From a virus (Duplodnaviria > Caudoviricetes): a stretch of DNA of 41,133 bases. The stretch's first letter is position 1. Each line of letters opens with the position of its first letter. This document shows, one piece after another, positions 3,791 to 33,700 of this stretch. A program made the translations under genes and the position numbers. The notes below the pieces were generated by a model. It was given only the letters and a program-made list of their open reading frames with translations. It was not told the DNA's origin and searched no databases. The stretch is from IMG/VR virus record IMGVR_UViG_3300020440_000028, positions 1 through 41,133 of that record. The stretch is one strand, 5' to 3'.

Positions 3791-4205
3791 TAAGTGCCAC
3801 GATGCCGATAACTTTTTCCCTAAATATCTTTTTATCATATATCTCCTGCTGCCTACGCTTCCGTATCTGCCCCTCCATTCGTAATAACTCGTCCCAAGCA
3901 GCCGTTCCGTGCGTAAACTTAATAAACTGTTGTAGCTCGTATCGCTGCTCTTCAAGTTTCTTTTTTGCTGCGAAAGCTTCGATTGCCTCTTGTTCTACCG
4001 TGCCCCCACCAAATACCTTACGAAACATAGTAGGATTCTTTGCTGATTTATGTGCGGCATCCACATCAGACACAGCACCCATCCATCTTGACAGATCCTG
4101 TGACATACTTTCAAGATCGCGCCCTGCCTGAAAGGCGCGCTTAATACCTGAAAAAGCCGTACTTGCGGTAGCTACAGCAGCAGAAATAGTGATTGGATCG
4201 AACAT
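3708..4205 (-). CDS. coiled-coil membrane protein at head of lysis/membrane cluster
   Basis: MFDPITISAAVATAS start, C-terminal TM helix; leader carries AACTACGGGA box. Confidence 0.8.
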   Translation of the reverse strand: MFDPITISAAVATASTAFSGIKRAFQAGRDLESMSQDLSRWMGAVSDVDAAHKSAKNPTMFRKVFGGGTVEQEAIEAFAAKKKLEEQRYELQQFIKFTHGTAAWDELLRMEGQIRKRRQQEIYDKKIFREKVIGIVALTVVLAVGLGLLGLFVYSLMGLDRGWFN

Positions 4206-4229
4206 AGATTTTCCCGTAGTTGCATGAGA

Positions 4230-8684: not shown

Positions 8685-9222
8685 GGCTATCGTTATCCTC
8701 TTCTGGGGTGATGTCGATTGTGACTGGGGCATAACTCTCCTTTATCTCCTTCAATGCTTTCATAACTTCCTCCTTAGACATACTGTCTATGCTCCCGTGT
8801 CGTATCTCTGATTTATTAACATATATATCGCCCTGCGCCATACCACGACGAAACTCTGCCTGCACCGCTGCCGAGTACGCACCATTCGCCAATGCCTCGT
8901 CCCGAATACGCTGCAAATCCCTTACGTGTCGCGAAAAGGTAATACTATATTTTTCATCCAAAGCCCGACGATATTCTTTGATCGCATGAACAACGTGCGG
9001 CGAGATATTCGGGTTCGTCAACTCATAAGCGCGTGTGTGCGCACTCGTTGCACTGTACCCGGCATTCTCTGCTGCTTCGCGTAACGTGACCTGCCCATCG
9101 CGGCTAACAAGCTCGCGGACAAACAGTTCTTGCTTTCGTGTCAAAGGGGTTTTTATGGTGGCGGGCTTTCGACCACGTGTCTCGTAACGTATGCCCGCTT
9201 TGCCTAGTTTTCGCTTCTTCAT
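8602..9222 (-). CDS. terS: terminase small subunit
   Basis: LTRKQELFV...AAENAGYS HTH, upstream of TerL. Confidence 0.8.
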   Translation of the reverse strand: MKKRKLGKAGIRYETRGRKPATIKTPLTRKQELFVRELVSRDGQVTLREAAENAGYSATSAHTRAYELTNPNISPHVVHAIKEYRRALDEKYSITFSRHVRDLQRIRDEALANGAYSAAVQAEFRRGMAQGDIYVNKSEIRHGSIDSMSKEEVMKALKEIKESYAPVTIDITPEEDNDSREEGERLLQTSEGSGAKSKSKAVANTN

Positions 9223-9314
9223 TCTCGGACCTCGGTTGATGGTTAATAAACAGCCTTAATATGCACGTTTTTTAGGCAGTTAACAAGAACCTTTTTTCTG
9301 CACAATATTTAGGC

Positions 9315-9334
9315 AATGTTTCACGTGAAACATT
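9315..9334. promoter_or_regulatory. parS: parS site (ParB-binding palindrome)
   Basis: AATGTTTCACGTGAAACATT, 20-bp perfect palindrome with canonical 16-bp core at 9317-9332. Confidence 0.8.
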
Positions 9335-9492
9335 CATACGATTTTTCTGGTAATTATTCGTGAAAAACATGGCCCATGCACTAGTGCCGACAGCCTGTGG
9401 GCGCGGTTTCTGGGGCGCTTTTTTTTGTTCTCGGTCCCCGCAACTTGACCCGATATCGGAAGGGACCCGAGCAAAAATAAAGATACTCGGCA

Positions 9493-9640
9493 CGGGGTAC
9501 GTGGTCCGCGGATCGGGGACCAGTTCCCGCGGATCACGACGGGCGGATCTTGGACGGCTGGCATAGGATCGGGGCGGGGCGGGAGCTGCTCGACGGCGGG
9601 CGGTACGTTTAGGATCAAGCGCGGACGGCGGGCCGTTGCG
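9493..9640 (+). repeat. degenerate GC-rich heptamer array, consensus ~CGCGGAT
   Basis: GGATC at 9510, 9531, 9545, 9566 (spacings 21, 14, 21); units cggggta cgtggtc cgcggat cggggac cagttcc cgcggat. Confidence 0.65.
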
Positions 9641-9663
9641 TGTTTAACTCTAAAATAGCGGAC

Positions 9664-9690
9664 AAAAAAAAGCCCGCGGTAAAGCGGGCT
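9664..9690 (-). terminator. intrinsic terminator
   Basis: AGCCCGC-tttacc-GCGGGCT followed by T tract on minus strand. Confidence 0.9.
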
Positions 9691-9711
9691 AAGTTTGAGC
9701 TGTAACGGGAT

Positions 9712-9936
9712 TTAAGTGTGTAAATAGCCGTCGGGTTCGATCCCGTAGGTTATGCCCCCGTAGACAATTAAAGCGGTGTCCCGTGCGCCTATTTCAGGAT
9801 AACAAGACCGCCGAAAATCTAAGAAGCTAATCGGAACGCGATCTTTAAGAATACCCGCGACATAAATATTAAATGTGGGCTTCTGGCGATCATATAACCG
9901 CTTCAAAGCTTTTAATTGATATTTGTTAAGTTTCAT
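9712..9936 (-). CDS. hypothetical accessory protein
   Basis: TAATG coupling; C-terminal GIEPDGYLHT. Confidence 0.8.
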   Translation of the reverse strand: MKLNKYQLKALKRLYDRQKPTFNIYVAGILKDRVPISFLDFRRSCYPEIGARDTALIVYGGITYGIEPDGYLHT

Positions 9937-10178
9937 TAGTCCGCCCCCGTTAACAATTTGTGATCGCTCCCCCTAGGATCAATTTTAATTTTTAATTCGT
10001 CGGGAATGTGGTCCACTAACTCCATAAAAAGTTTAAAACGTTTTTCGGCTAATTCTTCACGCCCGCAAGCTTGCATAGTCAAAGCAAAATCAATATTAAA
10101 TTTAATCGCTTCTCTTAAACTATTGTTTCGCTGTCGTACAGCTCCGCGCCCTCTATATGATTTTGATAAATTAGTCAT
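9936..10178 (-). CDS. hypothetical accessory protein
   Basis: AACTATGGAG RBS box and own promoter. Confidence 0.8.
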   Translation of the reverse strand: MTNLSKSYRGRGAVRQRNNSLREAIKFNIDFALTMQACGREELAEKRFKLFMELVDHIPDELKIKIDPRGSDHKLLTGAD

Positions 10179-10227
10179 AGTTTTTTTACTCCATAGTTTG
10201 AAACGGGCTTAATTACCCGCTAGGGAC

Positions 10228-10255
10228 AGTATAAGACAATCTAAGATCGAATCAA
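10228..10255 (-). promoter_or_regulatory. sigma70-type promoter with operator boxes
   Basis: TTGATT-16-TATACT containing ATCTTAGA and GTCTTATA. Confidence 0.7.
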
Positions 10256-10262
10256 GCCCCAT

Positions 10263-10287
10263 AAAAAAAAGCCCGCGTTAACGGGCT
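10263..10287 (-). terminator. intrinsic terminator
   Basis: AGCCCG-ttaacg-CGGGCT plus T tract. Confidence 0.88.
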
Positions 10288-10311
10288 TAATTTGGGCGCT
10301 GTGGGGCGGGT

Positions 10312-11031
10312 TTATTGCTTGCCAATATCCCCCGCAATGTGGTGTCTCAATATTCTACGGGGCGGAATAGTTTTGACAAACTCCCGCAATATTTCCGCGT
10401 CGGTTCGGTCTTGCTGTTTTTTTGCTAATCGTTCCCAATGTATGTTTACATTTCCGCCGTTAGCATAGCACCCGCCCCGCTCATTATTATTTATGCGGTT
10501 CTTTTGGTTCCCGTGCGCTGTAAACCCGATTATATAATCTCGATCGGATCGGGCGCATAGCGGACCAGAAACGCCCCCGCAATTCACACAACTAACAGTT
10601 GATATATATTCTTCAGGACAGCGGACAACCCGCACCCCGTCCCGCTCAATAGATCGCGCCCCGCCCCAAAAGTTTTGTGCAACTGTCAAAACTGTGGGGA
10701 TCGCGCATTCTTTAAAGAAATATAAAACGTCTTTCCAAATATCCGCGCTGTAATTGATCGTTGCGAATTTCTGAGGGGGGAAATAATCTTTAAACCATAA
10801 GATCGGGTTAAAATGCGAAAAAGTGAAAGCAAAACCGCCCGCGGGGACACTGTTGTAAATGACGTTTAAATAATCATAATCAACTTCTTTATCTTCACAC
10901 CCGCGCCCACTAGGATTTAATTGACAGCTAACGGGGCAGGTTCCGAATTTGTCCCCTGATCCCGCCCGATAAGTAACAGCTAACCCTTTAGTTTTTTTGC
11001 CCGTCGAAAATTCATTTACTAATAAAACCAT
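10312..11031 (-). CDS. Cys-rich probable Fe-S/Zn protein, DUF7227/gp88-like
   Basis: TCPVSC, FTFSH, INYSAD, RCP..SCVNC..PLCAR..IIGFTAHG, GCYA..HW, LRHHIAGD; start moved to MVLLV (GGGAG SD). Confidence 0.7.
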   Translation of the reverse strand: MVLLVNEFSTGKKTKGLAVTYRAGSGDKFGTCPVSCQLNPSGRGCEDKEVDYDYLNVIYNSVPAGGFAFTFSHFNPILWFKDYFPPQKFATINYSADIWKDVLYFFKECAIPTVLTVAQNFWGGARSIERDGVRVVRCPEEYISTVSCVNCGGVSGPLCARSDRDYIIGFTAHGNQKNRINNNERGGCYANGGNVNIHWERLAKKQQDRTDAEILREFVKTIPPRRILRHHIAGDIGKQ

Positions 11032-11065
11032 TTTTAAAAACTCCCGTGTTATAAGATTTATCCCA

Positions 11066-11104
11066 TATATACATAAAAAAAGGGCGGATGTAAACACCCG
11101 CCCC
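11066..11104 (-). promoter_or_regulatory. terminator with embedded promoter
   Basis: GGGCGG hairpin + T tract; TTTACA-17-TATATA with -35 in the hairpin; ATGGGAT-AA-ATCTTAT just downstream. Confidence 0.7.
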
Positions 11105-11127
11105 AAATAGATTAAATTTTAAAGTTT

Positions 11128-12162
11128 TTAAACTACGGCTAGTTCTTGGAAACTTTCCGAAGCTTCAACCCGTAAAACTTCCCGCTCCCGCTCAATAAGG
11201 GTTCTTTCTACGTTGTCGCGGTTGTCGGAATTTTTAACCTTGAACGTTTCGGAGTTGTGGGAGCTGTAATAGGTCAAGGCGGAATATAAAGCCCAGACAG
11301 AAGTTCCCCGATTTTGGAATTCCTTGTCTAATTGCTCCATCATGGCACGGGCTTTTCGACTCTGGATCTCTCCCGCAACCTTGCCTTTTTTCTCGGCTCT
11401 GGCTATCTCGCTTTCTGACGCGGGGTAATTTGCATCAAGAACAGCTTGTGCTTGTTCGGGTGTTATCTCCCTATTCGCCCATTGCTCCCAAACTTTCACC
11501 TTAGTTTCATAAAAGGCTATCTGCTCAGTTAACCAAGGCTTTATATATTCAGGTTTAAAACCCGCCGTATGTCCCCAGTTCTGAGCGCCTAGTTCTTTTT
11601 GGCTAGTCATGCCATTAGTACAGATAAGATCAAGCGCACCCGCTTGAACGCGGATAGCTGTTTGACCGCCAAAAGAATTTACAACCCGCACCATAAAATT
11701 TAACTGGGTTCCGCTTCCTGATAACTGGCGGATCTCATGCCCGAGCCCGTCGAAGTGATAGCCGAACCTAGCAACAGATCCCCCGTCGGCGGTACTCTCG
11801 ATTAACTTTACATTGTTCATTGCGCCTTTTGGGAGTGTGTCTTCAAGCGCTTCTTGTACAGGGACAATAAGATCATCATTATTACAAATAGCATAGCGCT
11901 TTTTCATAATACCTAAGATGTCGTTGTTATCGGTCCTGACTATAGCTTGACCGCCTTCAGGATCTATTGATTTAAAATCGGACCAAATGATCTTATCTTT
12001 TCCCTTATCGTCTTTAACAAGGGTGCTAGTTGTCCCGTACTGAATGGGTCTAAACTCAGCCTTATAAGAACATTTATCCAAAGGCGGAAAGCCCTCAAAA
12101 GATTCGTTTTGCTCCGCCTTGGCAGAAGCATTACTCAAAAGATTGTTTACAATATCGTTCAT
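11128..12162 (-). CDS. DUF932-family protein
   Basis: AIVRTD..ILG..RY..N, NSFGG, LICTNGM, HT, RGTSVWALYSALTYYSSH. Confidence 0.85.
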   Translation of the reverse strand: MNDIVNNLLSNASAKAEQNESFEGFPPLDKCSYKAEFRPIQYGTTSTLVKDDKGKDKIIWSDFKSIDPEGGQAIVRTDNNDILGIMKKRYAICNNDDLIVPVQEALEDTLPKGAMNNVKLIESTADGGSVARFGYHFDGLGHEIRQLSGSGTQLNFMVRVVNSFGGQTAIRVQAGALDLICTNGMTSQKELGAQNWGHTAGFKPEYIKPWLTEQIAFYETKVKVWEQWANREITPEQAQAVLDANYPASESEIARAEKKGKVAGEIQSRKARAMMEQLDKEFQNRGTSVWALYSALTYYSSHNSETFKVKNSDNRDNVERTLIEREREVLRVEASESFQELAVV

Positions 12163-12183
12163 AGTTTTTTCCTATAGTTAGTT

Positions 12184-12246
12184 AAAATAAAACGGGGCGA
12201 GATTACCCCGCCCCAGAAGAATATAAGATAATATGAGATGGGTCAA
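12184..12246 (-). promoter_or_regulatory. promoter-hairpin cassette copy A
   Basis: TTGACC-17-TATTCT then GGGGCGGGG-TAAT-CTCGCCCC-GTTTTATTTT. Confidence 0.8.
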
Positions 12247-12608
12247 GCCCTTAACAAGTCTTTATTCTTTCTTCTTCCTAGTCGGTCTTGGTAATCAACA
12301 AACCACCTCATAAAATCTTGGTCATTAGTCATTGAGCTAACAGAACCACTTGAGTGATTGCAATCCAAATCATCATATCGAGCGCACCATAACCACTCCC
12401 CAAAACTATATTTTTCTTCAAACGTTAAAAAATATAAATCATATACTCGATCGTTGTAGTGCCAATCTACATGAGCATAAAAAGAATACTTATGGTGCTT
12501 GCAACTATTTTCAAACTTCGGCTCATAAGAAATAACTTTGTATGGCATCCCCAGTTTTCTATTCTTAAAACCCATCTCATAATCCCAACGTATCAAATTA
12601 CTAATCAT
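12243..12608 (-). CDS. hypothetical aromatic-rich protein
   Basis: AACTATGGGAG RBS box and own cassette. Confidence 0.8.
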   Translation of the reverse strand: MISNLIRWDYEMGFKNRKLGMPYKVISYEPKFENSCKHHKYSFYAHVDWHYNDRVYDLYFLTFEEKYSFGEWLWCARYDDLDCNHSSGSVSSMTNDQDFMRWFVDYQDRLGRRKNKDLLRA

Positions 12609-12628
12609 TGTGTACTCCCATAGTTGTT

Positions 12629-12687
12629 AAAAAAAAGGGGCGAGAATACCCCGCCCCTACAGTATGAGATTATATGGGATAGGTCAA
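12629..12687 (-). promoter_or_regulatory. promoter-hairpin cassette copy B
   Basis: TTGACC-17-TACTGT then GGGGCGGGG-TATT-CTCGCCCC-T8; near duplicate of copy A. Confidence 0.8.
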
Positions 12688-12908
12688 TAATAAATATCGT
12701 CCTCAAACTTGTTCGAAACGCTATCACAATACCCGAGCTTACGAGCTAAAGTAATTGCTTCTGGGTAATGCTTCTTTAATAAAGATATGTTGAAGCTATC
12801 CATATAAGATATTGCGCTATGTAAACGATCTACCGCTTCCGCTAGTTTCGGAGCGCGGGTATCTGCAAAGCCCTGATCGATAAGTTTATTTTCAAAAGGC
12901 GTACTCAT
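12684..12908 (-). CDS. hypothetical protein
   Basis: ATGA coupling, GAGG SD. Confidence 0.75.
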   Translation of the reverse strand: MSTPFENKLIDQGFADTRAPKLAEAVDRLHSAISYMDSFNISLLKKHYPEAITLARKLGYCDSVSNKFEDDIYY

Positions 12909-13117
12909 TTATTTTCCTCAGCAATCAACTCTTCAAGCTTATCCATATCACGATCATTAAGAGCGTCCCTGACCGATTGTTTGGCCAAAAAGTTTTTAAA
13001 TTGTTCTCGGCTCATGTCCGCCCCTATACTACACTTGTTGCAGAAGTCCTGAATAAACATCTGTGTCAGCGGATCGTGTAAAGGCTGTTCGCTAAATTCG
13101 ATAGTATTTTTTGTCAT
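12905..13117 (-). CDS. hypothetical protein
   Basis: Start moved to MTKNT; AACTATAAGGAG box. Confidence 0.8.
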   Translation of the reverse strand: MTKNTIEFSEQPLHDPLTQMFIQDFCNKCSIGADMSREQFKNFLAKQSVRDALNDRDMDKLEELIAEENK

Positions 13118-13151
13118 AGTTTTTCTCCTTATAGTTAATTGACAATGTCCC

Positions 13152-13197
13152 ATACTAAACCAAAGAAAAAGCCCCGTCAACATTTTTAACGGGGCTT
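13152..13197 (-). promoter_or_regulatory. terminator with embedded promoter
   Basis: AAGCCCCGTT...GACGGGGCTTTTT; TTGACG-17-TAGTAT with -35 in the 3' stem arm. Confidence 0.8.
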
Positions 13198-13201
13198 AGT
13201 A

Positions 13202-13303
13202 TTATCTACGTTTTTTCCTTGTTGGACGGCTATTTGCTCTTCGTTCTAAATCGTCGTACTCGGACCCGTATAGCAACCATCCAATAAACCTAAATATAAA
13301 AAT
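13202..13303 (-). CDS. 33-aa peptide, probable ATT start (not in ORF track)
   Basis: AAAGGAGGTGA SD 6 nt before ATT; MFIFRFIGWLLYGSEYDDLERRANSRPTRKKRR fills gap up to terminator. Confidence 0.6.
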   Translation of the reverse strand: MFIFRFIGWLLYGSEYDDLERRANSRPTRKKRR

Positions 13304-13319
13304 TTCTACTCACCTCCTT

Positions 13320-13703
13320 TCATAAATCTATCCGACCCCAGTTCTTAATATCGAACCTATCGGCTATCGTTACCCGAACCTCGGTATAACAATCATCGCA
13401 CAGCGGAATATCTATCCAAGGGTAGGTCCAATCTTCTTTCGAAAAACTATCCTTACCAATCTCAGCAGTTTGTTCACACCCACCACACTTTATTATGTTA
13501 TCTATTTGGGGCGGTTTCCAATCTTCATTCTCTACTGTATCGTCTAAATTGCTAAAGATTAAATCTTTTAATTCTTCGTCAGTATACTTTAGTGCTTCTC
13601 GTAATTTTGCTCTTATCTCGTCCGCGGTAATGTCAAAACCATCTTCCTTGTCGTGATCGATAGAGAAACCAAGATAAGACACACTATTATATTTCTTACC
13701 CAT
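13320..13703 (-). CDS. acidic protein with C-terminal zinc finger
   Basis: CGGC...CDDC; start moved to MGKKY. Confidence 0.75.
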   Translation of the reverse strand: MGKKYNSVSYLGFSIDHDKEDGFDITADEIRAKLREALKYTDEELKDLIFSNLDDTVENEDWKPPQIDNIIKCGGCEQTAEIGKDSFSKEDWTYPWIDIPLCDDCYTEVRVTIADRFDIKNWGRIDL

Positions 13704-14094
13704 CCTGACTATCCCTCTGATACGCGACCACAAGAAAGTTAAGATCTTCAAAGTTTTCGAGATCCTCAGCGGGAACTTGATTAGCCAAAGTGGAGTGGGT
13801 CTTTCCGCCAAACCAAGCAACACCCGTTTTATGTTTTAGAGGTTTCCACCCCTCTTTGGCAATCTCGGACAACTGCTTATCGGTCAAAAACATTTTGGGT
13901 TCATTATTAAAGAACAACTCATACAGCTCCTCAATAATATCACCGCCCATGCCGAGATGATCTTCGTCCATATTATCGGCCCAATCTTTTAACTGCCACA
14001 GCAATCTCTCTGTATCGGTATTTTGTTTCAAAACGCTGTTAAGCCATTTATCAACTTCAGGCTTCTCGCCCTCGACTAATTTAACTGGTTTCAT
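13696..14094 (-). CDS. hypothetical protein
   Basis: TACTATGGAG box; start MKPVK. Confidence 0.8.
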   Translation of the reverse strand: MKPVKLVEGEKPEVDKWLNSVLKQNTDTERLLWQLKDWADNMDEDHLGMGGDIIEELYELFFNNEPKMFLTDKQLSEIAKEGWKPLKHKTGVAWFGGKTHSTLANQVPAEDLENFEDLNFLVVAYQRDSQDG

Positions 14095-14122
14095 AGTTTT
14101 CTCCATAGTATTTATACGAACC

Positions 14123-14150
14123 AGTATATGGGACTTTATCAGACTGTCAA
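14123..14150 (-). promoter_or_regulatory. sigma70-type promoter with operator boxes
   Basis: TTGACA-16-TATACT, spacer GTCTGATA-AA-GTCCCATA. Confidence 0.8.
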
Positions 14151-14159
14151 CCCCTTATT

Positions 14160-14400
14160 GTTTATTCAGCCTCTATATATACTCAGCTAAAAAAAATTAT
14201 AAAAAAAATTCTCAGACCCCTATAAGAGATTTTGGCGATTAACGATTGTGTAACATCTCTAAAATAGTGGTGTTACGGAGGCGGTACAGACAAAGTCCTT
14301 ATAATATAGGGCTTTCAGGACGCCGTACCGCCGTACCGCCTGTACCGCCAATTCTATTCAAAAAAAAATAAAAAAAAATATCTGAACATATAATAGGTGT
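14160..14400. other. putative replication origin
   Basis: Non-coding; GTACCGCC at 14325, 14333, 14342, inverted copy at 14280; GTAACATC/GGTGTTAC pair; flanking A tracts. Confidence 0.55.
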
Positions 14401-14413
14401 GATCGACAAAATT

Positions 14414-14662
14414 TCAGGAAAATTCCTTACAATCTTTTTTTAAATTTTCTAAAACTTTTTGCAGAGCGTCTACGGCGCCCCGATTATAGGAGGCCTCTTC
14501 AGCGGATATTGCCTGACTATTAATATTGATCTTTTTATGCTCCAGTATCATCTTTTCCACCTGATCTGTGATAGTTTCGATCTTTAAACTAAGCTGTCCC
14601 ATATGCTTCATGGCCTGTGTGTGGTTACCCACGACTTTTGTATTAGTGTTTTTTATGTCCAT
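14414..14662 (-). CDS. hypothetical coiled-coil protein
   Basis: GAGGA SD, overlap-coupled. Confidence 0.7.
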   Translation of the reverse strand: MDIKNTNTKVVGNHTQAMKHMGQLSLKIETITDQVEKMILEHKKININSQAISAEEASYNRGAVDALQKVLENLKKDCKEFS

Positions 14663-14834
14663 CTCGGTCCTCGTGTAAGATCATATCGGCTAAATTTTCA
14701 AAGTCTTGCGCTATATAAACTAGGTTAGTGTGCTGTACATATTTGGCTATTTTAATTATCTTCCGCGTTTCGTCATCGTCGGGGAGCAAGCCGCGCTCCC
14801 CGTATTCGATTATATATCTAAGTATCTGCTCCAT
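14643..14834 (-). CDS. hypothetical protein
   Basis: GAGGA SD, overlap-coupled. Confidence 0.7.
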   Translation of the reverse strand: MEQILRYIIEYGERGLLPDDDETRKIIKIAKYVQHTNLVYIAQDFENLADMILHEDRDGHKKH

Positions 14835-15081
14835 TGTCCTCAGATTTTAACACTAATTCATTATAAATACTATAATGCCCTTCTTCATTTTTTTTATGTT
14901 CAATCCCGAGAATATGAAACAGTTCCCATTTTAGAGACACCAAATCACAGATATCATTGTAATCGATGGGACAATGTTGAGCCGTGGCTACTTCTATGTT
15001 TGCAAGACATTTCATACTTTTACAAATCTTGACTCTCTGTTCAGGGGTAACCTCCCATGGTTTATTTTTTGTTTTACTCAT
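14818..15081 (-). CDS. hypothetical protein
   Basis: GAGGAG SD, overlap-coupled. Confidence 0.75.
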   Translation of the reverse strand: MSKTKNKPWEVTPEQRVKICKSMKCLANIEVATAQHCPIDYNDICDLVSLKWELFHILGIEHKKNEEGHYSIYNELVLKSEDNGADT

Positions 15082-15418
15082 TATCGTTCTCCTCTTCTAT
15101 GCTTATATGTCTATCGATTTCGTCAATCGCGCCTTTAAGTTCTTTTACTGTGGCGTGTATGTTAGATGGATCTTGTCGGGCCTCGGGACAATTACGGAGC
15201 GTGTCGTAAGAATCATCTATCAAGCTCAGTAGAACTTTCTTAGCTATCCTGAGTTCGCTTGGCGGTTCTTCCAAACTCTCTGTAATTATATTGTTCTTCT
15301 TCTTGGCCCATGTTGCGAGGGCCGTGATGCAGACCTCGTAATACTCCTCGCACGTAAACGTTCCGATTTCCTCGCTCCAAGAGCCCGTTTCACTTTGTAG
15401 ATGTACCCGTACTGTCAT
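15074..15418 (-). CDS. hypothetical protein
   Basis: Start MTVRV with GGAG SD and ATGA overlap. Confidence 0.75.
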   Translation of the reverse strand: MTVRVHLQSETGSWSEEIGTFTCEEYYEVCITALATWAKKKNNIITESLEEPPSELRIAKKVLLSLIDDSYDTLRNCPEARQDPSNIHATVKELKGAIDEIDRHISIEEENDNE

Positions 15419-15699
15419 TGTTTTACGCTCCATAAAAATTTTTCAAAGTTAATATTTGTGGTCCAATTTTTTTCTCCACAATCTTCGATTTCGTCACATT
15501 CATATGCAGTACAGACAATATTTCCTTCTTCATCGTCCCACAAATTTAAGTCAAACATTCGCTTATCAAATTGTATTCCGTACCACATAGACAGATCCTC
15601 AAAGCCTTGTAGCTTATCCTCTTTCCACTCCTCTAAACATTTACAACTAAATTTTGCGAGCTGTCGCATTTCTTTATTTGAAAGTTGTAGTTCAGTCAT
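15415..15699 (-). CDS. hypothetical acidic protein
   Basis: GGAGGT SD. Confidence 0.78.
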   Translation of the reverse strand: MTELQLSNKEMRQLAKFSCKCLEEWKEDKLQGFEDLSMWYGIQFDKRMFDLNLWDDEEGNIVCTAYECDEIEDCGEKNWTTNINFEKFLWSVKQ

Positions 15700-15897
15700 T
15701 TATACCTCCACCATCTCTAGTTTTTCCCAATGGAACTCTTCTTCTATTTCTGCCCACGCGGACTCATAGCAAGAGGCATACGAATTGCTAAAGGGTGTAT
15801 CGGTATAATGGTTTATTAGATCCTGTGTCCAAAGCCCGACAAGATGCTCCAAAGACCTTTCGTGGTCCATGGGCAGTTCGTTTTTGAATGTGATCAT
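15700..15897 (-). CDS. hypothetical acidic protein
   Basis: Start MITFK, GGAGGT SD, ATGA overlap. Confidence 0.72.
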   Translation of the reverse strand: MITFKNELPMDHERSLEHLVGLWTQDLINHYTDTPFSNSYASCYESAWAEIEEEFHWEKLEMVEV

Positions 15898-16085
15898 TCT
15901 TCCACCTCCCAGATATTTTCTAACGTCCAATCATGTCCATCATCGGCCTGTTCCCAATTAGGCTCTTCAGCGTCTGGGTTATCCCCCCTTGCTATTACCC
16001 ACGCTTTGTCTTTAGTGGGCGCTTCGATTATCGCGGAATATCCAACGTCTTTTGTTGCAGTTACTCTATATTTAGGCATCGTCAT
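15894..16085 (-). CDS. small acidic protein, DpnD/PcfM-like pattern
   Basis: MPKYRVTA...IIEAPTKDKAWVIA. Confidence 0.7.
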   Translation of the reverse strand: MTMPKYRVTATKDVGYSAIIEAPTKDKAWVIARGDNPDAEEPNWEQADDGHDWTLENIWEVEE

Positions 16086-16377
16086 TCTCCTTGCTCTTCC
16101 TCAACGTTTCTTCGGCCATGCTTATAACGGACGCTGTATCGGGATCAATATCTCGGGCGATATCGTACAGCTCGGCTAACTTTTCTTGTAGACCTTTTTT
16201 CTTAAACTTATATATCCAATCATGTAACTTGTTCGCTACCCAATACGCTTGTTCTATATCAAGACTACTGTCCCAACCAAAATCGTCATCATCTTCATCT
16301 CTGTAAGCGTGTTCGGTTACCACTTCTTGACACCTTTGTAAGATGCGCTTGACTATATATGTGTCATCATACTTCAT
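16072..16377 (-). CDS. hypothetical acidic protein
   Basis: GAGGAG SD, ATGA overlap (alternative start 16383). Confidence 0.75.
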   Translation of the reverse strand: MKYDDTYIVKRILQRCQEVVTEHAYRDEDDDDFGWDSSLDIEQAYWVANKLHDWIYKFKKKGLQEKLAELYDIARDIDPDTASVISMAEETLRKSKENDDA

Positions 16378-16694
16378 TGCCATTCTCCTCGGTCTGGAAA
16401 GGTATGTTTAAACAATAATACGTCACAATTATCGGGATCAGATACAACACCTCTACTCCACTCGCCGTTTTCATCTTGCAAGACGGGATAGACAAGCGCT
16501 TCGTACTCGTGTTTTTCTTCCTCGATTGATTGATCGAGGATGAGGTGTATATCATATGGCACCCCATCGTGCCAGATAGTGTGCCAGATATCGCACTCGC
16601 CCTCGTCTTTAAACTTACGAGCGGTAGCAATTACTTTTTTGTTGATGGCGTCCTTATCTTTTTCGTAATCGGCTTTAAAATCGCGTATTGTCAT
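16374..16694 (-). CDS. hypothetical acidic protein
   Basis: AACTATAGGAG box; promoter TTGACA-17-TTATAT at 16723-16751. Confidence 0.8.
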   Translation of the reverse strand: MTIRDFKADYEKDKDAINKKVIATARKFKDEGECDIWHTIWHDGVPYDIHLILDQSIEEEKHEYEALVYPVLQDENGEWSRGVVSDPDNCDVLLFKHTFPDRGEWQ

Positions 16695-16754
16695 ATTTTT
16701 CTCCTATAGTTGACATAATCTCATATAATCACAGATAAAATGGCCTGTCAACAC

Positions 16755-16823
16755 AAAAAAAGCCCCCTAGATATCTAGAGGGCTCTTCTTTAACTACGGG
16801 AGAGGGCCTATGACTTCCCTCAG
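16755..16823 (-). ncRNA. candidate ~70-nt anti-RBS sRNA
   Basis: Promoter TTGTAA-17-TATAAC (16830-16858), 5' hairpin GAGGG/CCCUC, seed UCCCGUAGUU, terminator 16755-16784, no ORF. Confidence 0.65.
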
Positions 16824-16852
16824 TATGTAGTTATACGCGACTATATAAGACT

Positions 16853-17113
16853 TTACAAGTCTTTTTTGTTTTTTATTTGTTTTTTATTATTAAATTCGTC
16901 AGGCGTGATAAATCTCTTATTTATATCGGCCCGAATACGTTTAATTGTTTCTTCGTCATCAAAAACTTTAGAGTAATCCACTTCTTTTTTCTTTTTACGG
17001 CGTGTCATACGTTTTATTGTTTCTAAAACTTCTTTACTAAAGTGCCGTATTTGGTGGTCCGTGTTTGGTTTTTTAAGAAAATTATTAATGTTCGCTAAAT
17101 ATTCTAATTTCAT
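16853..17113 (-). CDS. hypothetical basic protein
   Basis: ATGA coupling. Confidence 0.65.
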   Translation of the reverse strand: MKLEYLANINNFLKKPNTDHQIRHFSKEVLETIKRMTRRKKKKEVDYSKVFDDEETIKRIRADINKRFITPDEFNNKKQIKNKKDL

Positions 17114-17343
17114 TTCATAAACTCGGGTTTGGGTAACGGTATACGTATCTCAGGGAGATAGGTATCTACTTTAACACAGTTTTTCTTTCCGACAATAGGA
17201 TCGTTTTGTTGACCTAACATTTCTGCGTAATGTTCGCATTGGTCCGCATTCTCAAAGTAAATACGATGGATGGCCCGTTGATCGCTCTCGATATCGGGTA
17301 CAGTTATCAGGTACAATATAAAGTAAACAATATCAGGTGTCAT
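17110..17343 (-). CDS. small exported/membrane protein with Cys pair
   Basis: Hydrophobic N-terminus, F....QC...C; promoter TTGACT-16-TAATAT at 17379-17406. Confidence 0.75.
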   Translation of the reverse strand: MTPDIVYFILYLITVPDIESDQRAIHRIYFENADQCEHYAEMLGQQNDPIVGKKNCVKVDTYLPEIRIPLPKPEFMK

Positions 17344-17402
17344 ATCTCTCTCCTATGGTAATATATATAATTTATCCCATATTATAGCCAAATTTTTTTT
17401 AG

Positions 17403-17561
17403 TCAAGGCTTAGGATCAAGTTTTTCTTTCAATTTATTATAGATTTGCCAGATAATTTTTAGCTGACCGCTGATAGTCCGTCCGCGATCCGAGCTTGTTC
17501 GCTTAATTTCTTCGTAAACTTCCTTGGGAACGAGTACCGACTTCCATTTTTCTGTGTCCAT
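17403..17561 (-). CDS. ribbon-helix-helix (Arc/CopG-like) regulator, 52 aa (not in ORF track)
   Basis: MDTEKWKSVLVPKEVYEEIKRTSSDRGRTISGQLKIIWQIYNKLKEKLDPKP; AAGGA SD; strand-helix-GRTIS-helix pattern. Confidence 0.8.
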   Translation of the reverse strand: MDTEKWKSVLVPKEVYEEIKRTSSDRGRTISGQLKIIWQIYNKLKEKLDPKP

Positions 17562-17574
17562 AAGGTGTCCTTAT

Positions 17575-17618
17575 ATATTATCTTACAAGACTATATAAGA
17601 TAATATGTAAAGATGCAA
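17575..17618 (-). promoter_or_regulatory. RHH gene promoter with palindromic operator
   Basis: TTGCAT-17-TATAGT; inverted repeat ATATTATCTTA-N10-TAAGATAATAT straddling -10. Confidence 0.78.
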
Positions 17619-17619
17619 G

Positions 17620-17980
17620 AAAAAAAGCCCCCAGATGAACCAGATCTGAGGGCCGTGAGGTTAGTTTTAGAGCTTCGTTGGCAGTTTGACTACCCGAAAG
17701 CAGTTTTTCTTCGACCAAACTCAGTTCTCACCGCTCCACTCTTTACTTTTGGCATCCAAATGGGTGTTCAAACCGTGTCCTCTCAATACACACTTTAGCA
17801 AGCAGTCACTTTTTTTGCGAAATAATTCGCTTAAGATCATTGGGTAGGTCCCAACTAGCTCTCGATCACAGAGCGCTTTTGCCGCTTCCAAAGACCTTGA
17901 ACACGTGGTCAACACACTTTGTTACATCGCGCTAAGTCTGCCTTGATGTACTTCCATGGTTTTAATGGGCGATCAGTATT
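17620..17980 (-). ncRNA. candidate ~360-nt structured ncRNA
   Basis: Promoter TTGACA-16-TATTTT (17985-18012), terminator 17620-17654, many hairpins incl. UUCG loop, no credible CDS. Confidence 0.65.
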
Positions 17981-18023
17981 ATCTAAAATAATAGCTTATA
18001 AGATATTGTCAAGCCCAAAAATT

Positions 18024-18058
18024 AAAAAAAAATAAAAAAAGCCCCGCTTGGCGGGGCT
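18024..18058 (-). terminator. intrinsic terminator of replication operon
   Basis: AGCCCCGC-caa-GCGGGGCT with long T tract. Confidence 0.92.
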
Positions 18059-18089
18059 AGGGTGGGAGGAAAGTGTTAGCAGTAAAAAA

Positions 18090-19982
18090 TTATTTAGCAG
18101 TTCCCCAATCGGGGCCAACCTCAATATCACACTTGCTCGGTATCTCTAAGTCTACCGCAGTTTCCATCATCTGAGAAATAGTTTCTGCATCTTTTATGTC
18201 TTTAACAGACATAGCTATCTCATCGTGAATCTGTATAAGCGGTATACGACCTGTTTTATATATATCAATCATAGCTTTTTTGGTCATATCAGCGGCTGAT
18301 GCCTGAATTAACCTATTCAGGGCCTTGTAGGTATACGCACGTTTGAGGCGTGTCGTATCGCCATACTCTTGCACCGCTTCGCGGTACGGGAGCGCTTTGT
18401 TCATCTCAAATGTATCGGGCTCCCACAGATCAAACCGACACTTACGTCCTAACAGGGACCGAATAGAACCGCTACTGCTCTTGTCGTTGAGTCTGTTTTG
18501 CACGCCTGTCATCAACATTTTAACAAACGGCACCCGTGTGTGGTACTGACGGACCAAGTCCTTGGCTTCGTCAAGCGTGATATCCAGTTGGTCAGACATT
18601 TTACCGACCCCCATACCGTACATCAGGCCCAAGTTTATCGTCTTTGCTTGCTTACGTGGTATCTGTGCCATTTCGGCAACCATTGTATGAAAGTCCATAT
18701 CGGGATTGTTCCGATAGCCGTGGACAAATTCTTCTACACCGTCAAGCGTGAGCCCTTTACTCTTGCCATACACATACGCATAGTGAACTAAGATCCGTGG
18801 TTCCTGTTGCGAGAAGTCAATCGCGGCCCATTTTTCGCCCTCTTCGGGGAGGAACAGAGAGCGAATCATAGGACCAAGCTCAGGATCCCGTGCGGGGATC
18901 TGCTGTAGGTTCGGGTTATTCATGGATATACGTCCTGACACGGTACCGCCGTCGTCGGATCGTATTTGATTTATATGGCTGTGTATGCGTCCATCTGAGT
19001 GACAATGCTTCATAATTGTATTAATAAAGGTCCCCGAGGTCTTGTTCAGGTTACGGGCTTGAACAATTAACTGTGGGAGTTCGTGGCTATGATCGCTCAG
19101 GAATTGTTTCGTGAACGATGGTGCGCCCTTCTCGGTCCGTGGGTATTCGATACTGAGAGACTCAAAGGCCTTCGCTATGGAGGCGGCAGCCCATATTTCG
19201 ATGTCATGCCCCACAAGTTTCTTAATGTGGCTCAGTACGTCTTTCTCGCGCTTGAGTAGCGAGTTCCGTGTGCGCTCGACCTTGTCCTGATCGACCCGTA
19301 CTCCGCGCCATGTCATGTCAATAAGGCACGGTAGTAGATCGAGCTCAAGATTAGCGATAGGCCATAGGTCTTCTTTGCCGAGTTGTCCTGACAGATAGTT
19401 CCAGAGTTCAAGTGTTAGCTCGGCGTCCCCCTCGGCATACGGTCCCACATACATTGCAGGCATCTTCCAGAGCTCGCCTTTTGGGTCCAGACCAAAGCTA
19501 CGGGCCGCTTCTACCAGATTTTTCTCGGATTTTACCTTGCCAAGGTGATCGTAGGCCAGAGCATTCAAACTATAACTAAATCGATTTTCGTCCAATAGAG
19601 CCGCAATAAGCATGGTATCGATGATTCGACCGTTGAGCGTGAATCCCATGCGCCGTATCCACCCCGCATCATACTGGGCATTGTGCATTATTTTATCGGC
19701 GGGGCTCTCAAATACTTTTTGTAGCCACTTGTTTACGATACGCTCGTCCAGATTACCCCCGTATCGGTGTCGTATGGGTATGTAACCTGACCAATCGCTG
19801 ACGGCAATGGCATATCCCACCACTTCACCGTCCCCTGTGGCCCATCCCGCCCCGAGTGTTTTGATATTTGGATCACGTGTTTCAACATCGATGGCTATTT
19901 GTTTGGCCTCGAAGATGTTAGGAAGCTCGGATGGCGGTAGCCATTCCGACTTTGGCGTATCAAACGCTAACTGCAAGGCCAT
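18090..19982 (-). CDS. polA: DNA polymerase family A (3'-5' exo + pol)
   Basis: IDVET, HNAQYD, GRISMNNPNLQQIP, DFSQQEPR, KTINLGLMYGMG, IQIHDE; start moved to MALQL. Confidence 0.96.
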   Translation of the reverse strand: MALQLAFDTPKSEWLPPSELPNIFEAKQIAIDVETRDPNIKTLGAGWATGDGEVVGYAIAVSDWSGYIPIRHRYGGNLDERIVNKWLQKVFESPADKIMHNAQYDAGWIRRMGFTLNGRIIDTMLIAALLDENRFSYSLNALAYDHLGKVKSEKNLVEAARSFGLDPKGELWKMPAMYVGPYAEGDAELTLELWNYLSGQLGKEDLWPIANLELDLLPCLIDMTWRGVRVDQDKVERTRNSLLKREKDVLSHIKKLVGHDIEIWAAASIAKAFESLSIEYPRTEKGAPSFTKQFLSDHSHELPQLIVQARNLNKTSGTFINTIMKHCHSDGRIHSHINQIRSDDGGTVSGRISMNNPNLQQIPARDPELGPMIRSLFLPEEGEKWAAIDFSQQEPRILVHYAYVYGKSKGLTLDGVEEFVHGYRNNPDMDFHTMVAEMAQIPRKQAKTINLGLMYGMGVGKMSDQLDITLDEAKDLVRQYHTRVPFVKMLMTGVQNRLNDKSSSGSIRSLLGRKCRFDLWEPDTFEMNKALPYREAVQEYGDTTRLKRAYTYKALNRLIQASAADMTKKAMIDIYKTGRIPLIQIHDEIAMSVKDIKDAETISQMMETAVDLEIPSKCDIEVGPDWGTAK

Positions 19983-30756: not shown

Positions 30757-33700
30757 TTATTCCCTATTTCCTCGCATCCAATCTTTTGCTTTCTTAGTTG
30801 TTTCCGGTGTAACCGCGATTGCGCCTGTCTGTAAAGCTTCTTGATAAATCTTACGCATATTTCTAATCTCAGCAGTCAATAAAACAAGCTTATCTGTAAT
30901 CGCTCTAGCTTTAGTAATTTGACTCATATTGAATTTCTGTCCCGGATCTCCTCCATATTCAGGAATTCTTTGCGCTAAAACTTGAATACTATTCGCTAGT
31001 TTACTTTCAACCGCTAAGAGTTTTGATAGAGCTGTTTCGTCCGTTGTAAACATTCCGGGTGTAAGTTTTCTTGTTTCCTCTGCAAGTTCAAGTTGAACAA
31101 ATTTTAAAATTCTTCCAACCCCCTCATCTTCATTTCCTTTGGTAATTGTTGCCAAAATATCGTTTCTTAGAGAAACGATGACGGACTCTGCTCTACTGAA
31201 ATCTTTTTGACTTTGATTTAAAGGACTACCACCAAGTTCCCTAAACTGCTCTTTAAAAAATACTTTAAGTCTTGGCAAACCGCTCGCCAATCCAGTAGTT
31301 TCAGGATAATTTAAATTCTTATCTACTAAGTTAGTAGGAATCTTATCCCAAGATGGTGAATCTAAATTAACATTACCTTGAACGGGATCAAATAATGAAA
31401 GATTAAATTGTTTAGTGCCGTATTGTAGATCTTGTTGCGGTGCAGGTTGAGTTCTTGTGTCACCACTAACACTTGGTAAATCAGTTTGTCCCGGAAGGTT
31501 TACAGTAGGTAATCCCTTAGCTCTTCTTGCAGAAATGGCTCGTTTAATTGCAGGAGATAACTGCGGTACAGAGCCAACCCTAAACTCTCCTTGAAAAGGC
31601 ACCATAGATGGTTTTGAAATAAAATTAAGTAGCTTCTGTTCAAACTCGGTTGTTTCTTGTTCTCCTAAGCTACCATCAGCATAGGCATCTAAACGTTCTT
31701 TGTTACTTATGTACTTTATACTTGCTGTTTCTGGTCTAGACCCTAACAACTCTTCATCGTCTCCGGGAACTTTTGCTACACCGGCTTTTATAGCGCCCAA
31801 TTCAATAGCTTCTTTATACGTATCTGTGCCGGGTTTAAGAGCTTTTACTGTGCCGTCTGGAAATAGAAGATTTACTTCCCCTTGGACGGTAGGCGCTTTG
31901 TATGGAATCAAAGCATCGGGCTCAAGTTTATCTACATCTGCCGCTTTTAAGTTGACAATAGTGTTTTTTGCGTAATTTTTTCCGTCAATTTCTAAAGCAC
32001 GAGCTGTTAAAAACGGAGAAGTGCTTCCGACCGTAGGAGGTGAGTAAGGCACAATTTTACCAAAAGGTATACCAGAAGCCTGACTTGCCGTTAAATTGAC
32101 AACGGTATCTTTAGAAACTTTTTCTCCGTCTATCTCTACCTCTTCCTTAACAATATAGGCCGTAAGTGTTTCACTTTCTGCTTTATAAGGTTTAATACTA
32201 TCAACCGGAAGGTTATTTACTTGCGTAGGATTTAAATTAACTATTGTATTTGCAGGTAATTTCTTTCCGTCAAGAGTAATTTCTTTCAGTGTTGTATATG
32301 GTTTTTGAGATAATCCCTCGCCTGCTCTGAATGGAATTAATATTCCTTGGGCTATGTTGGATACTTGATCTGTACTTAAATTTACGACTGTATCTTTTGG
32401 GATAGTGTTTCCGTCAAGAACAAAGTCTTTAGTAGCAGTATAAGCTTTTAAGCTCGACTCTGAAGGAGCCTTATAAGGCACTAAATCCCCAAAATTAGTG
32501 TTTCCTACTTGGGTCGGATTTAAGTTTACAACAGTATTTTTAGGAATCGTCGTTCCATCAATCGTAATCTCTTTAGTTGTTTTATAGGCCTTTTGAGCCT
32601 TTGCTGTGGTCTTACTTTTTATTGACGCTAATCTTTCTGCGGCTGCCTCTGCTTTTTCCGCCGCAAGCTTAGTTTCGGCAGACTGTAGTGCTGCTAATTC
32701 TATAGCTCTTTCCTCTTTTGCAGCTTCTTTATCAAGTTGTAGTTGCGCCTGTGCTCTTGCCCCAATCTTTTCTGGTAGTTGCGTGGACCGTGCTGCCATA
32801 GCCAATCTCTCCGCAGGACTTAAACCGGGGCGCTCTCCTTCCATCGGAGCTGCAAACGCCAAAGCAGTAGTGGCAATGTCAAACAACATCTGCGCTTTTG
32901 TCATACGTTTTTGTTGCTCGGCCATTGCTTGTCGATCAGCAACGTCACCAAGACCGACTTTTCTATACAACTCCAGATCATTAGCAAATAATTCTTGTAA
33001 TCTAGTTTTACCCGTACCCGGATTTTTGCTTTCTGCGTTTAAAGCATTATTAACCTTATTTTCAGCATCCTCATCGCCAGAGGACCCTAATAAACCCGTC
33101 ACACGAAGAAGGTTTACTGGAGATTCGCCTGTAGGTATGTAAGGAAACGCCGGATTAAACGAGAATTGGTTTCCGCCTCCTGCAACTCTATTCATGTTTG
33201 GAGGAGCGAAGTATTCTACAGGGCGGACTTCACCGCCTTTGTTAAAATTTACGGGAGCGGTCCCGCCGGCCTCCATCATTGGTGGTTCAGGAACCGTGGA
33301 CATTATGCCCCCGGCCATCGGCCCCTCCATGGGTTGCGTCATCTCTTGCTGTGCAAGCTGACCAATACCTTGATCAACATTCGCTAACATCATAACGGGC
33401 TGTACTAAGGTCAACACGGACTCTGGGGTCTGGTTTGCGTCACCGGATCCGACAACTCCGGCTAGTTCTTCGCGTCTTTCTTCTACTGTTGCCTGATCAC
33501 CACGCATTGTATTCATTACCTGTTCGTAGTTTTGTGCCTGATCTAAATCACCTATACCACCGGCAGCCTGTGCTAATGCGCTCTGCACTATGTTTGGATC
33601 AAGTTGATCTCCCATGGGCATAGGGGGCTGTTCTGGTGCAGGCATGGGCATAGGGGGCGCAGTCATCGGATCGCCGCCCATCTGCATACCCTTTACACCT

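Follow-up and report, generated by a model that had tools for sequence, protein, structure and literature searches.

A candidate phage antisense RNA whose seed covaries with the ribosome-binding box of scattered early genes

A short minus-strand unit at positions 16755-16858 of the window (the whole 41,133-nt stretch of phage DNA analyzed here) probably encodes a trans-acting antisense RNA that represses translation of the phage's own early genes. At the level of sequence, the anatomy of the unit, its conservation, its complementarity to early leaders, and the covariation of its seed with the leader box are established. Seed and box change in step over 14 seed types, which suggests that the RNA likely silences scattered genes together. 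In lytic phages, the shut-off of early genes is usually ascribed to proteins. If a seed co-evolves with a box before many separate operons throughout a large, widespread group of uncultured marine phages, it would amount to a regulon run by a phage-made RNA.

In the mechanism we propose, the seed of a ~70-nt RNA would cover the box that spans the Shine-Dalgarno sequence of the first gene in each early cassette, ribosome loading on scattered early mRNAs would be blocked in trans, and downstream coupled genes would be silenced together with the first gene. In the window's clade, a second contact between the loop UCAUAG and CUAUGA at the start codon would offset the looser box. Host RNA polymerase would transcribe the unit along with the early cassettes, because promoter type and an operator-like motif are common to both. 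Being stable, the RNA would build up, perhaps also as the 3′-terminal part of the mRNA of a ribbon-helix-helix (RHH) gene, and would shut down early translation after a delay, acting alongside the putative RHH repressor.

The window is a linear virus record, ~70% complete, with portal, terminase, PolA, primase, and tail genes, and its phage is a marine podovirus related to HTVC023P. Its polymerase is closest to those of DSL-LC04 (56%), 023Pt_psg01 (54%), and the pelagiphages HTVC023P/027P (49-50%); the closest genome matches are phage contigs binned in MAGs, with polymerase identities of 81% and 77%. The contigs concerned (L228, L229; genome_contigs) sit in MAGs labeled Verrucomicrobiales and Halieaceae, labels that we do not trust as host assignments. 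Neither an integrase (54 ORFs scanned) nor an antirepressor was matched among the scanned ORFs of this ~70% complete genome. The variable region, from the polymerase (18090) to the small terminase (9222), is made up of short cassettes on the minus strand; each has a sigma70-type promoter and an over-conserved leader, and often a terminator hairpin. At 12636-12690 and 12188-12246, the predicted start of an early promoter lies within the preceding terminator hairpin, so that a single hairpin would end the upstream RNA and spare the new one. Elsewhere in the window, a gene for a 1242-aa virion protein contains five imperfect repeats of ~42 nt at a spacing of 141-144 nt (31947-32561), which correspond to a 47- to 48-aa protein repeat.

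Anatomy and conservation of the unit

An ORF-less unit running from promoter to terminator, as described by an earlier reading made from the letters alone (the sequence-only reading), can be read directly from the minus strand, with promoter, RNA sequence, and terminator all as claimed. The sigma70-type promoter TTGTAA-17-TATAAC (16830-16858) has its -35 hexamer TTGTAA at 16858-16853 and its -10 hexamer TATAAC at 16835-16830, with an operator-like motif at 16844-16850 in the 17-nt spacer. Promoter spacing puts the RNA start at about 16824, giving a predicted RNA of ~70 nt (16755-16824); the RNA sequence quoted in the sequence-only reading lies at 16824-16785. The RNA would begin with a 5′ hairpin, GAGGG/CCCUC (16802-16821), whose anti-start loop GUCAUAG is at 16814-16808; hairpin and loop are confined to the window's clade. 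The seed CUCCCGUAGUU follows (16792-16802); it is antisense to the leader box, Shine-Dalgarno GGAG included, and is the exact complement of AACTACGGGAG. An intrinsic terminator (16755-16786) closes the unit, with its stem at 16783-16762 and a run of seven Ts at 16761-16755, which abuts the TTGACA of the next cassette promoter. The unit thus has the marks of an sRNA: its own promoter, an intrinsic terminator, a length within 50-200 nt, and no conserved ORF. Its terminator may also stop transcripts from the upstream RHH cassette.

The predicted RNA folds into one small hairpin plus the terminator. A 75-nt version has a fold z of -3.85, largely because of the terminator. Pairing of the seed depends on the start site: in the window's RNA, the seed is predicted to pair into the 5′ stem with a start at 16824-16826, and it is open only with a start at 16822. 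Rfam returned no family at gathering for the unit, with best E values of 0.46 (RcsR1) and above.

The unit is kept in relatives amid changing neighbor genes, which answers a point on which the sequence-only reading had made its proposal depend. A 23-mer of the unit occurs exactly in 20 IMG/VR contigs that retain promoter and terminator next to different neighbors. Among 12 aligned relatives, the -35 and the TAT of the -10 are unchanged, and the terminator T run sits on the antisense strand. The terminator shows 13 pairs with one-side and double changes, and two pairs of the 5′ stem have a double change in L074. For a wider comparison, loci were fetched by way of the polymerase, so that their choice was independent of the RNA; the resulting 156 nonidentical polymerase loci include the 23-mer loci and many close strains, and 94 of them extend at least 2.6 kb downstream. 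A rule called the unit in 75 of these 94 loci, or 72 of 94 once three miscalls (the first call in L044, L046, and L048) were dropped. Most units, the window's among them, failed a stricter promoter filter that insisted on a T at the final -10 position, and this filter was abandoned. Three further units were found by hand in L055, L044, and L151, the later true L044 unit not entering the tests. Unit-bearing loci have a polymerase 69-100% identical to the window's, and their unit lies downstream of the DNA polymerase and an RHH-like gene. Among held-out loci, the unit was called in 16 of 23, and the four cultured relatives had no unit within 12 kb. Units generally share a promoter, a seed starting with CTCC, TTCC, ATCC, or CTCT, and a terminator; between promoter and seed there may be a 5′ hairpin, which can have any sequence. 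In some forms no more than ~12 nt precede the terminator, and the seed of some forms is inside a hairpin loop.

Leader boxes and their covariation with the seed

The sequence-only reading placed a box, AACUAYRGGAG, before many genes. The box is real and is exact at two of them, 16694 (AACTATAGGAG, 16701-16711) and 12608 (AACTATGGGAG, 12615-12625; all boxes are on the minus strand), but the others are mismatched or looser: one mismatch before the DUF932 gene (start 12162; box 12169-12179), and looser forms before the DUF7227 gene (start 11031; AACACGGGAG, 11041-11050) and genes 10178 (AACTATGGAG, 10189-10198), 13117 (AACTATAAGGAG, 13125-13136), 14094 (TACTATGGAG, 14101-14110), and, weakly, 17343 (TACCATAGGAG, 17350-17360). 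Apart from the DUF932 and DUF7227 genes, the box genes are unnamed ORFs. Outside the early region, AACTACGGGAA with one mismatch precedes the gene for a 165-aa protein at 4205 (4211-4221). Allowing up to one mismatch, AACTAYRGGAG has 10 matches in the window against 2.25 expected, a number reached in none of 100 shuffles, and 5 of the 10 matches lie away from gene starts and from the unit.

The seed is complementary to several unlinked translation starts, with imperfect pairing in the window's subclade. The best early target is the box of gene 12608, with 11 bp including one G-U pair, and AACTACGGGAA at gene 4205 offers a 10-bp perfect match and the best cofold score in the window. Mean cofold gain in the window was -8.4 for 10 early first genes, -5.4 for 12 internal genes, and -5.0 for 30 core genes. 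Box genes, which the sequence-only reading expected to rank top by pairing, thus scored better on average (early vs. other genes: P = 0.013), but the distributions overlap, the leaders of 26713 and 9936 score amid the box genes, and the top rank belongs to the nonearly gene 4205.

Across relatives, seeds fall into at least 14 classes (types include CCC, CC, CTCCATTG, CTCCGTGG, CTCCTTTCGG, and a CA-repeat), and the first-gene box of early cassettes varies with the seed. We defined targets without reference to the seed, as ATG genes starting at least 45 nt after the previous ORF, and used 37 loci of at least 6 kb in 14 seed classes. Leaders paired with their own seed at a centered energy of -2.59 kcal/mol compared with 0 ± 0.40 under permutation; 0 of 100,000 permutations was as good, a P value that is too small because the seed classes are related by a tree. 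The control with leaders of internal genes was not significant (P = 0.14). Own seed ranked first in 8 of the 14 classes and second in 4, and the longest exact match was longer with own than with foreign seeds in 13 of 14. In the CTCCTTTCGG class, own leaders fitted no better than foreign ones. Seed and box covariation, which the sequence-only reading had named as a check, is thus present across the 14 classes. Exact matches are short: the longest is just ~6-8 nt in the window's subclade, and 58 of 361 first-gene leaders have one of at least 8 nt. In 10 long new loci held out from the analysis, the raw ranks of own seed among 27 were 1, 2, 4, 4, 4, 5, 6, 10, 24, and 27, where the rule had anchored the last two on the wrong CTCC. 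Near-duplicates are frequent among the 27 seeds, and centered ranks were weaker (2-27).

The cleanest case is a one-base indel in the seed that is mirrored in the boxes: among distinct leaders, TACGGG occurs in 38 of 197 in CCC-seed phages and 0 of 101 in CC-seed phages, whereas TACGGA occurs in 2 of 197 and 30 of 101, respectively. Orthologous genes swap the box along with the seed (families 3 and 11), and clustering by protein family found few box-bearing families common to four or more classes. In L229, CACACACAAAA boxes were seen first, and the antisense TTTGTGTGTG was then found in L229 and L151, flanked in both by a promoter and a hairpin; in L229 the promoter reads TTGCAA-18-TAGAAT and the hairpin ends in a weak T tail. 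This clade, whose CA-repeat box is unrelated to the others, thus has the matching antisense copy. Deviations compatible with G-U pairing (C>T 28/157, A>G 19/285) exceed those that break pairs (T>C 5/112, G>A 13/266), a weak sign because C>T may reflect AT bias.

The loop of the 5′ hairpin had been proposed to pair with start contexts, and all six contexts named are present: CTATGAC at 10178 and 13117, TATGAC at 16694 and 17343, and CTATGA at 12162 and 14094. Sequence comparison supports the proposal for the window's clade, where CTATGA is found at the start of 34 of 93 first genes, as against 2 of 105 among internal genes and 10 of 389 among first genes of other clades. The 12 aligned members of this clade all carry UCAUAG unchanged, 9 of them having been picked through a 23-mer that contains it, and no other clade has it. 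For the loop CCCCCAAG, which belongs to the largest foreign class, no leader target is apparent. Boxes are loosest in the window's subclade, and this second contact (UCAUAG/CUAUGA) plausibly compensates for them.

Alternative explanations

Upstream of the unit, at 17403-17561 on the minus strand, lies a gene for a 52-aa RHH-like protein (PF07878: E = 2.3e-5, 24.5 bits against a cut-off of 26 bits; atlas 0.95 to the RHH_5 cluster), which is the first gene after the DNA polymerase in most relatives (family 0). It is a probable transcription repressor of the same early cassettes, and its probable operator is TC[CGT][CT]ATA, a motif enriched around early promoters, with 24 matches on both strands of the early region 9200-18100 (2.7 per kb vs. 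0.5 elsewhere), that is present in 66 of 79 unit promoters compared with 99 of 2951 polymerase windows. Box and inverted copy could accordingly be half-sites of a DNA operator bound by a phage protein, this one being the most plausible, and covary through drift in its specificity with no RNA pairing: three window boxes match the motif, the seed TCCCGTA is one base off, and the RHH-like gene is upstream of the unit. We consider this unlikely. The motif stays in unit promoters where seed and box have diverged (CTCCATT, 3/3; CTCCTAT, 4/4), and it therefore seems to form a layer of its own; boxes overlie the Shine-Dalgarno sequence in sense, with the inverted copy just before the terminator (mostly 8-19 nt); and half-sites leave the CA-repeat clade and the second contact at the start codon unexplained. 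The seed could instead act chiefly within the 3′ UTR of the RHH-cassette mRNA, or in a 3′ piece processed from that mRNA, and pair in cis or trans, with the internal promoter minor. This would fit the absence of any called terminator from 17626 to the unit, since upstream transcripts would then end at the unit and the seed may form the 3′ terminus of the RHH mRNA. It would also fit the several classes in which the unit lies 330-550 nt after the polymerase, directly behind the RHH gene. However, the promoter directly before the seed is conserved while upstream genes change, and the leader of the RHH gene (family 0) carries no box, so that we regard a mainly 3′-UTR role as quite unlikely.

Every seed starts with an anti-Shine-Dalgarno core and the CTCCTTTCGG class shows no preference for its own leaders, as might be seen if a real RNA acted chiefly on host RNAs, or mimicked the 16S anti-Shine-Dalgarno, with the match to phage leaders secondary. 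Yet in 13 of 14 classes the bases beyond the core follow the phage's own box, and they vary from class to class, a variation that pairing with a conserved host RNA would not require; we hold host targets or mimicry to be very improbable. The window's seed presumably resembles the antisense of 16S rRNA helix 14; targeting of that helix was rejected because other seed classes differ. The sequence-only reading had itself allowed that the unit might be an inverted decayed cassette, its plus strand reading an RBS followed by MTSLSM and a stop, and that reading frame is confirmed in the sequence. The plus strand does resemble a cassette start, with hairpin, box, 7-nt spacer, and ATG, and such a remnant, or a plus-strand gene for the MTSLSM peptide, might be kept alike by cassette recombination. 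Decay of this kind is largely ruled out, because a reverse ATG is missing from 46 of 67 distinct units, the ORFs of the others (4-108 aa) have no common sequence, and the conserved promoter and terminator point the opposite way; 9-12 nt is also short for gene conversion. We therefore give either form extremely little credence.

Known systems and neighboring elements

The c4 RNA of phages P1 and P7 targets an antirepressor operon. The available portion of one source describes it as a 77-nt, three-stem RNA of temperate-phage immunity, processed by RNase P, that pairs in trans over the ribosome-binding site of its own phage's mRNA through two contact regions; c4 and its target change together, and a 4-nt difference limits P1/P7 cross-reactivity (PMC5320573). 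As far as that portion goes, the putative antisense RNA resembles c4 in pairing with ribosome-binding sites of its own phage, in changing together with its target at the sequence level, and, in the window's clade, in having two contacts, but differs in its promoter-seed-terminator build and in having ~8 separate operons as predicted targets. The Rfam C4 model gave no match at gathering or at E ≤ 5, and the three-stem fold with a′ and b′ loops is not present; the logic of the unit is c4-like but multi-operon, and the unit is not a member of the c4 family. Like trans-encoded multi-target sRNAs as outlined in the sections available, it would be a stand-alone short RNA with a terminator and a seed over SD/AUG, the seed being single-stranded if the RNA starts at 16822. 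The phage sRNAs VpdS, PreS, DicF, and 24B_1 have host genes, one phage gene, or cis targets, and none of them, in the available part of a review that also tabulates 38 uncharacterized phage sRNAs, has a genome-wide leader box that co-evolves with a seed (PMC12197685).

On the target side, the boxes resemble start-associated sequences (SAS), an over-conserved RBS box before nonstructural genes in mycobacteriophages of Cluster K and Microbacterium phages of Cluster EF, whose role is stated to be unknown in the accessible parts of papers from 2011 to 2024; the same excerpts record a single inverted copy, untied to a gene start, in four K1 phages (PMC3203893, PMC7302621, PMC11373665). The window shares with these phages a conserved asymmetric RBS box, in ~8 copies looser than the 13-bp SAS and near-exact in other clades, although it is unrelated to the SAS sequence GGGATAGGAGCCC apart from the SD core. 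SAS has no RNA partner described in those excerpts, whereas the inverted copy in our unit has its own promoter and terminator and covaries with the box. The single inverted SAS of Angelica (L220:30540-30680) lies in the loop of a long hairpin (z -6.3) behind a -10-like hexamer, TAGACT, in a region common to 193 phage records, where it is gene 92 in some and intergenic in others. An inverted SAS in a hairpin loop was found in 4 of 7 aligned Cluster K genomes: Angelica, Validus, and Mdavu retain the loop match, Amohnition has an altered form, and Hurricane, Pixie, and Marshawn lack it. The 36.7-kb right part of AnnaSerena has no inverted SAS within 2 mismatches. We take the inverted SAS as a lead to a parallel antisense case, not as proof, and the antisense-RNA reading offers a testable account of over-conserved ribosome-binding boxes.

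PeSL cassettes of T4-like phages combine a repeated stem-loop, promoter, SD, and ATG with shuffled ORFans in the text available (PMC4122927, PMC2839356). The target cassettes of the window likewise repeat a stem-loop, sigma70 promoter, SD, and ATG in a variable region; PeSL elements correspond to target-type cassettes with no antisense regulator, and neither "antisense" nor "small RNA" appears in the available text of PMC4122927. The obtainable portions of PMC9599517 contain neither "promoter" nor "noncoding", and no such regulon is described in open-licence full texts, supplements aside, as far as these were available (including PMC10914365 and PMC8545117).

A bolder view is that seed and box form an RNA address code by which one small RNA silences a whole early programme, the 14 or more seed types being exclusion groups, and that this is an overlooked general layer of phage control that perhaps explains mycobacteriophage SAS; we offer it as a doubtful though conceivable extension. 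An established phage would then shut off incoming phages of the same type and not others. Since 5-10 leaders would have to change to match each new seed, the abundance of seed types could suggest selection, speculatively for evading a resident phage of like type that would otherwise shut the newcomer off. The seed-box pairs provide natural cognate and noncognate sets, and orthogonal translation switches might be drawn from the 14 seed types.

Seven RNA runs (X1-X4, X7, X8, and X11) yielded no contig over 16755-16824, and contigs from ordinary libraries can miss a 70-nt RNA. Depth in X1 was 0 in the bin 16378-16811, and X11 contained 31-nt pieces at 16863-16895, an A-rich tract upstream of the promoter, with 3 mismatches. 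The same runs cover another promoter-to-terminator unit of ~350 nt at 17626-17980 (minus strand): contigs from five studies lie inside it (X2, 17751-17970; X3, 17750-17958; X4, 17669-17944; X7, 17664-17956; X8, 17672-17969) and that of X11 reaches 18012, a weak hint of a discrete RNA because only runs already containing part of the stretch were selected. This unit had no Rfam or phage-database match, has a fold z of -1.66 and ~96% copies in three other contigs, and contains a weak GTG ORF without a clear SD that is frameshifted between copies; a 15-mer metagenome scan gave 120 loci, none homologous. Directly after the polymerase and just before a terminator (18040-18090), a second anti-Shine-Dalgarno run, CCTCCC, lies at 18069-18064 on the minus strand. 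Such a run near the polymerase end occurs, as a raw count, in 77 of 122 loci with a terminator there; 16 of the CCTCCC loci also have an anti-ATGAAA stretch, and some have their own promoter. The element at 18040-18090 is a candidate 3′-UTR sRNA against generic or host leaders.
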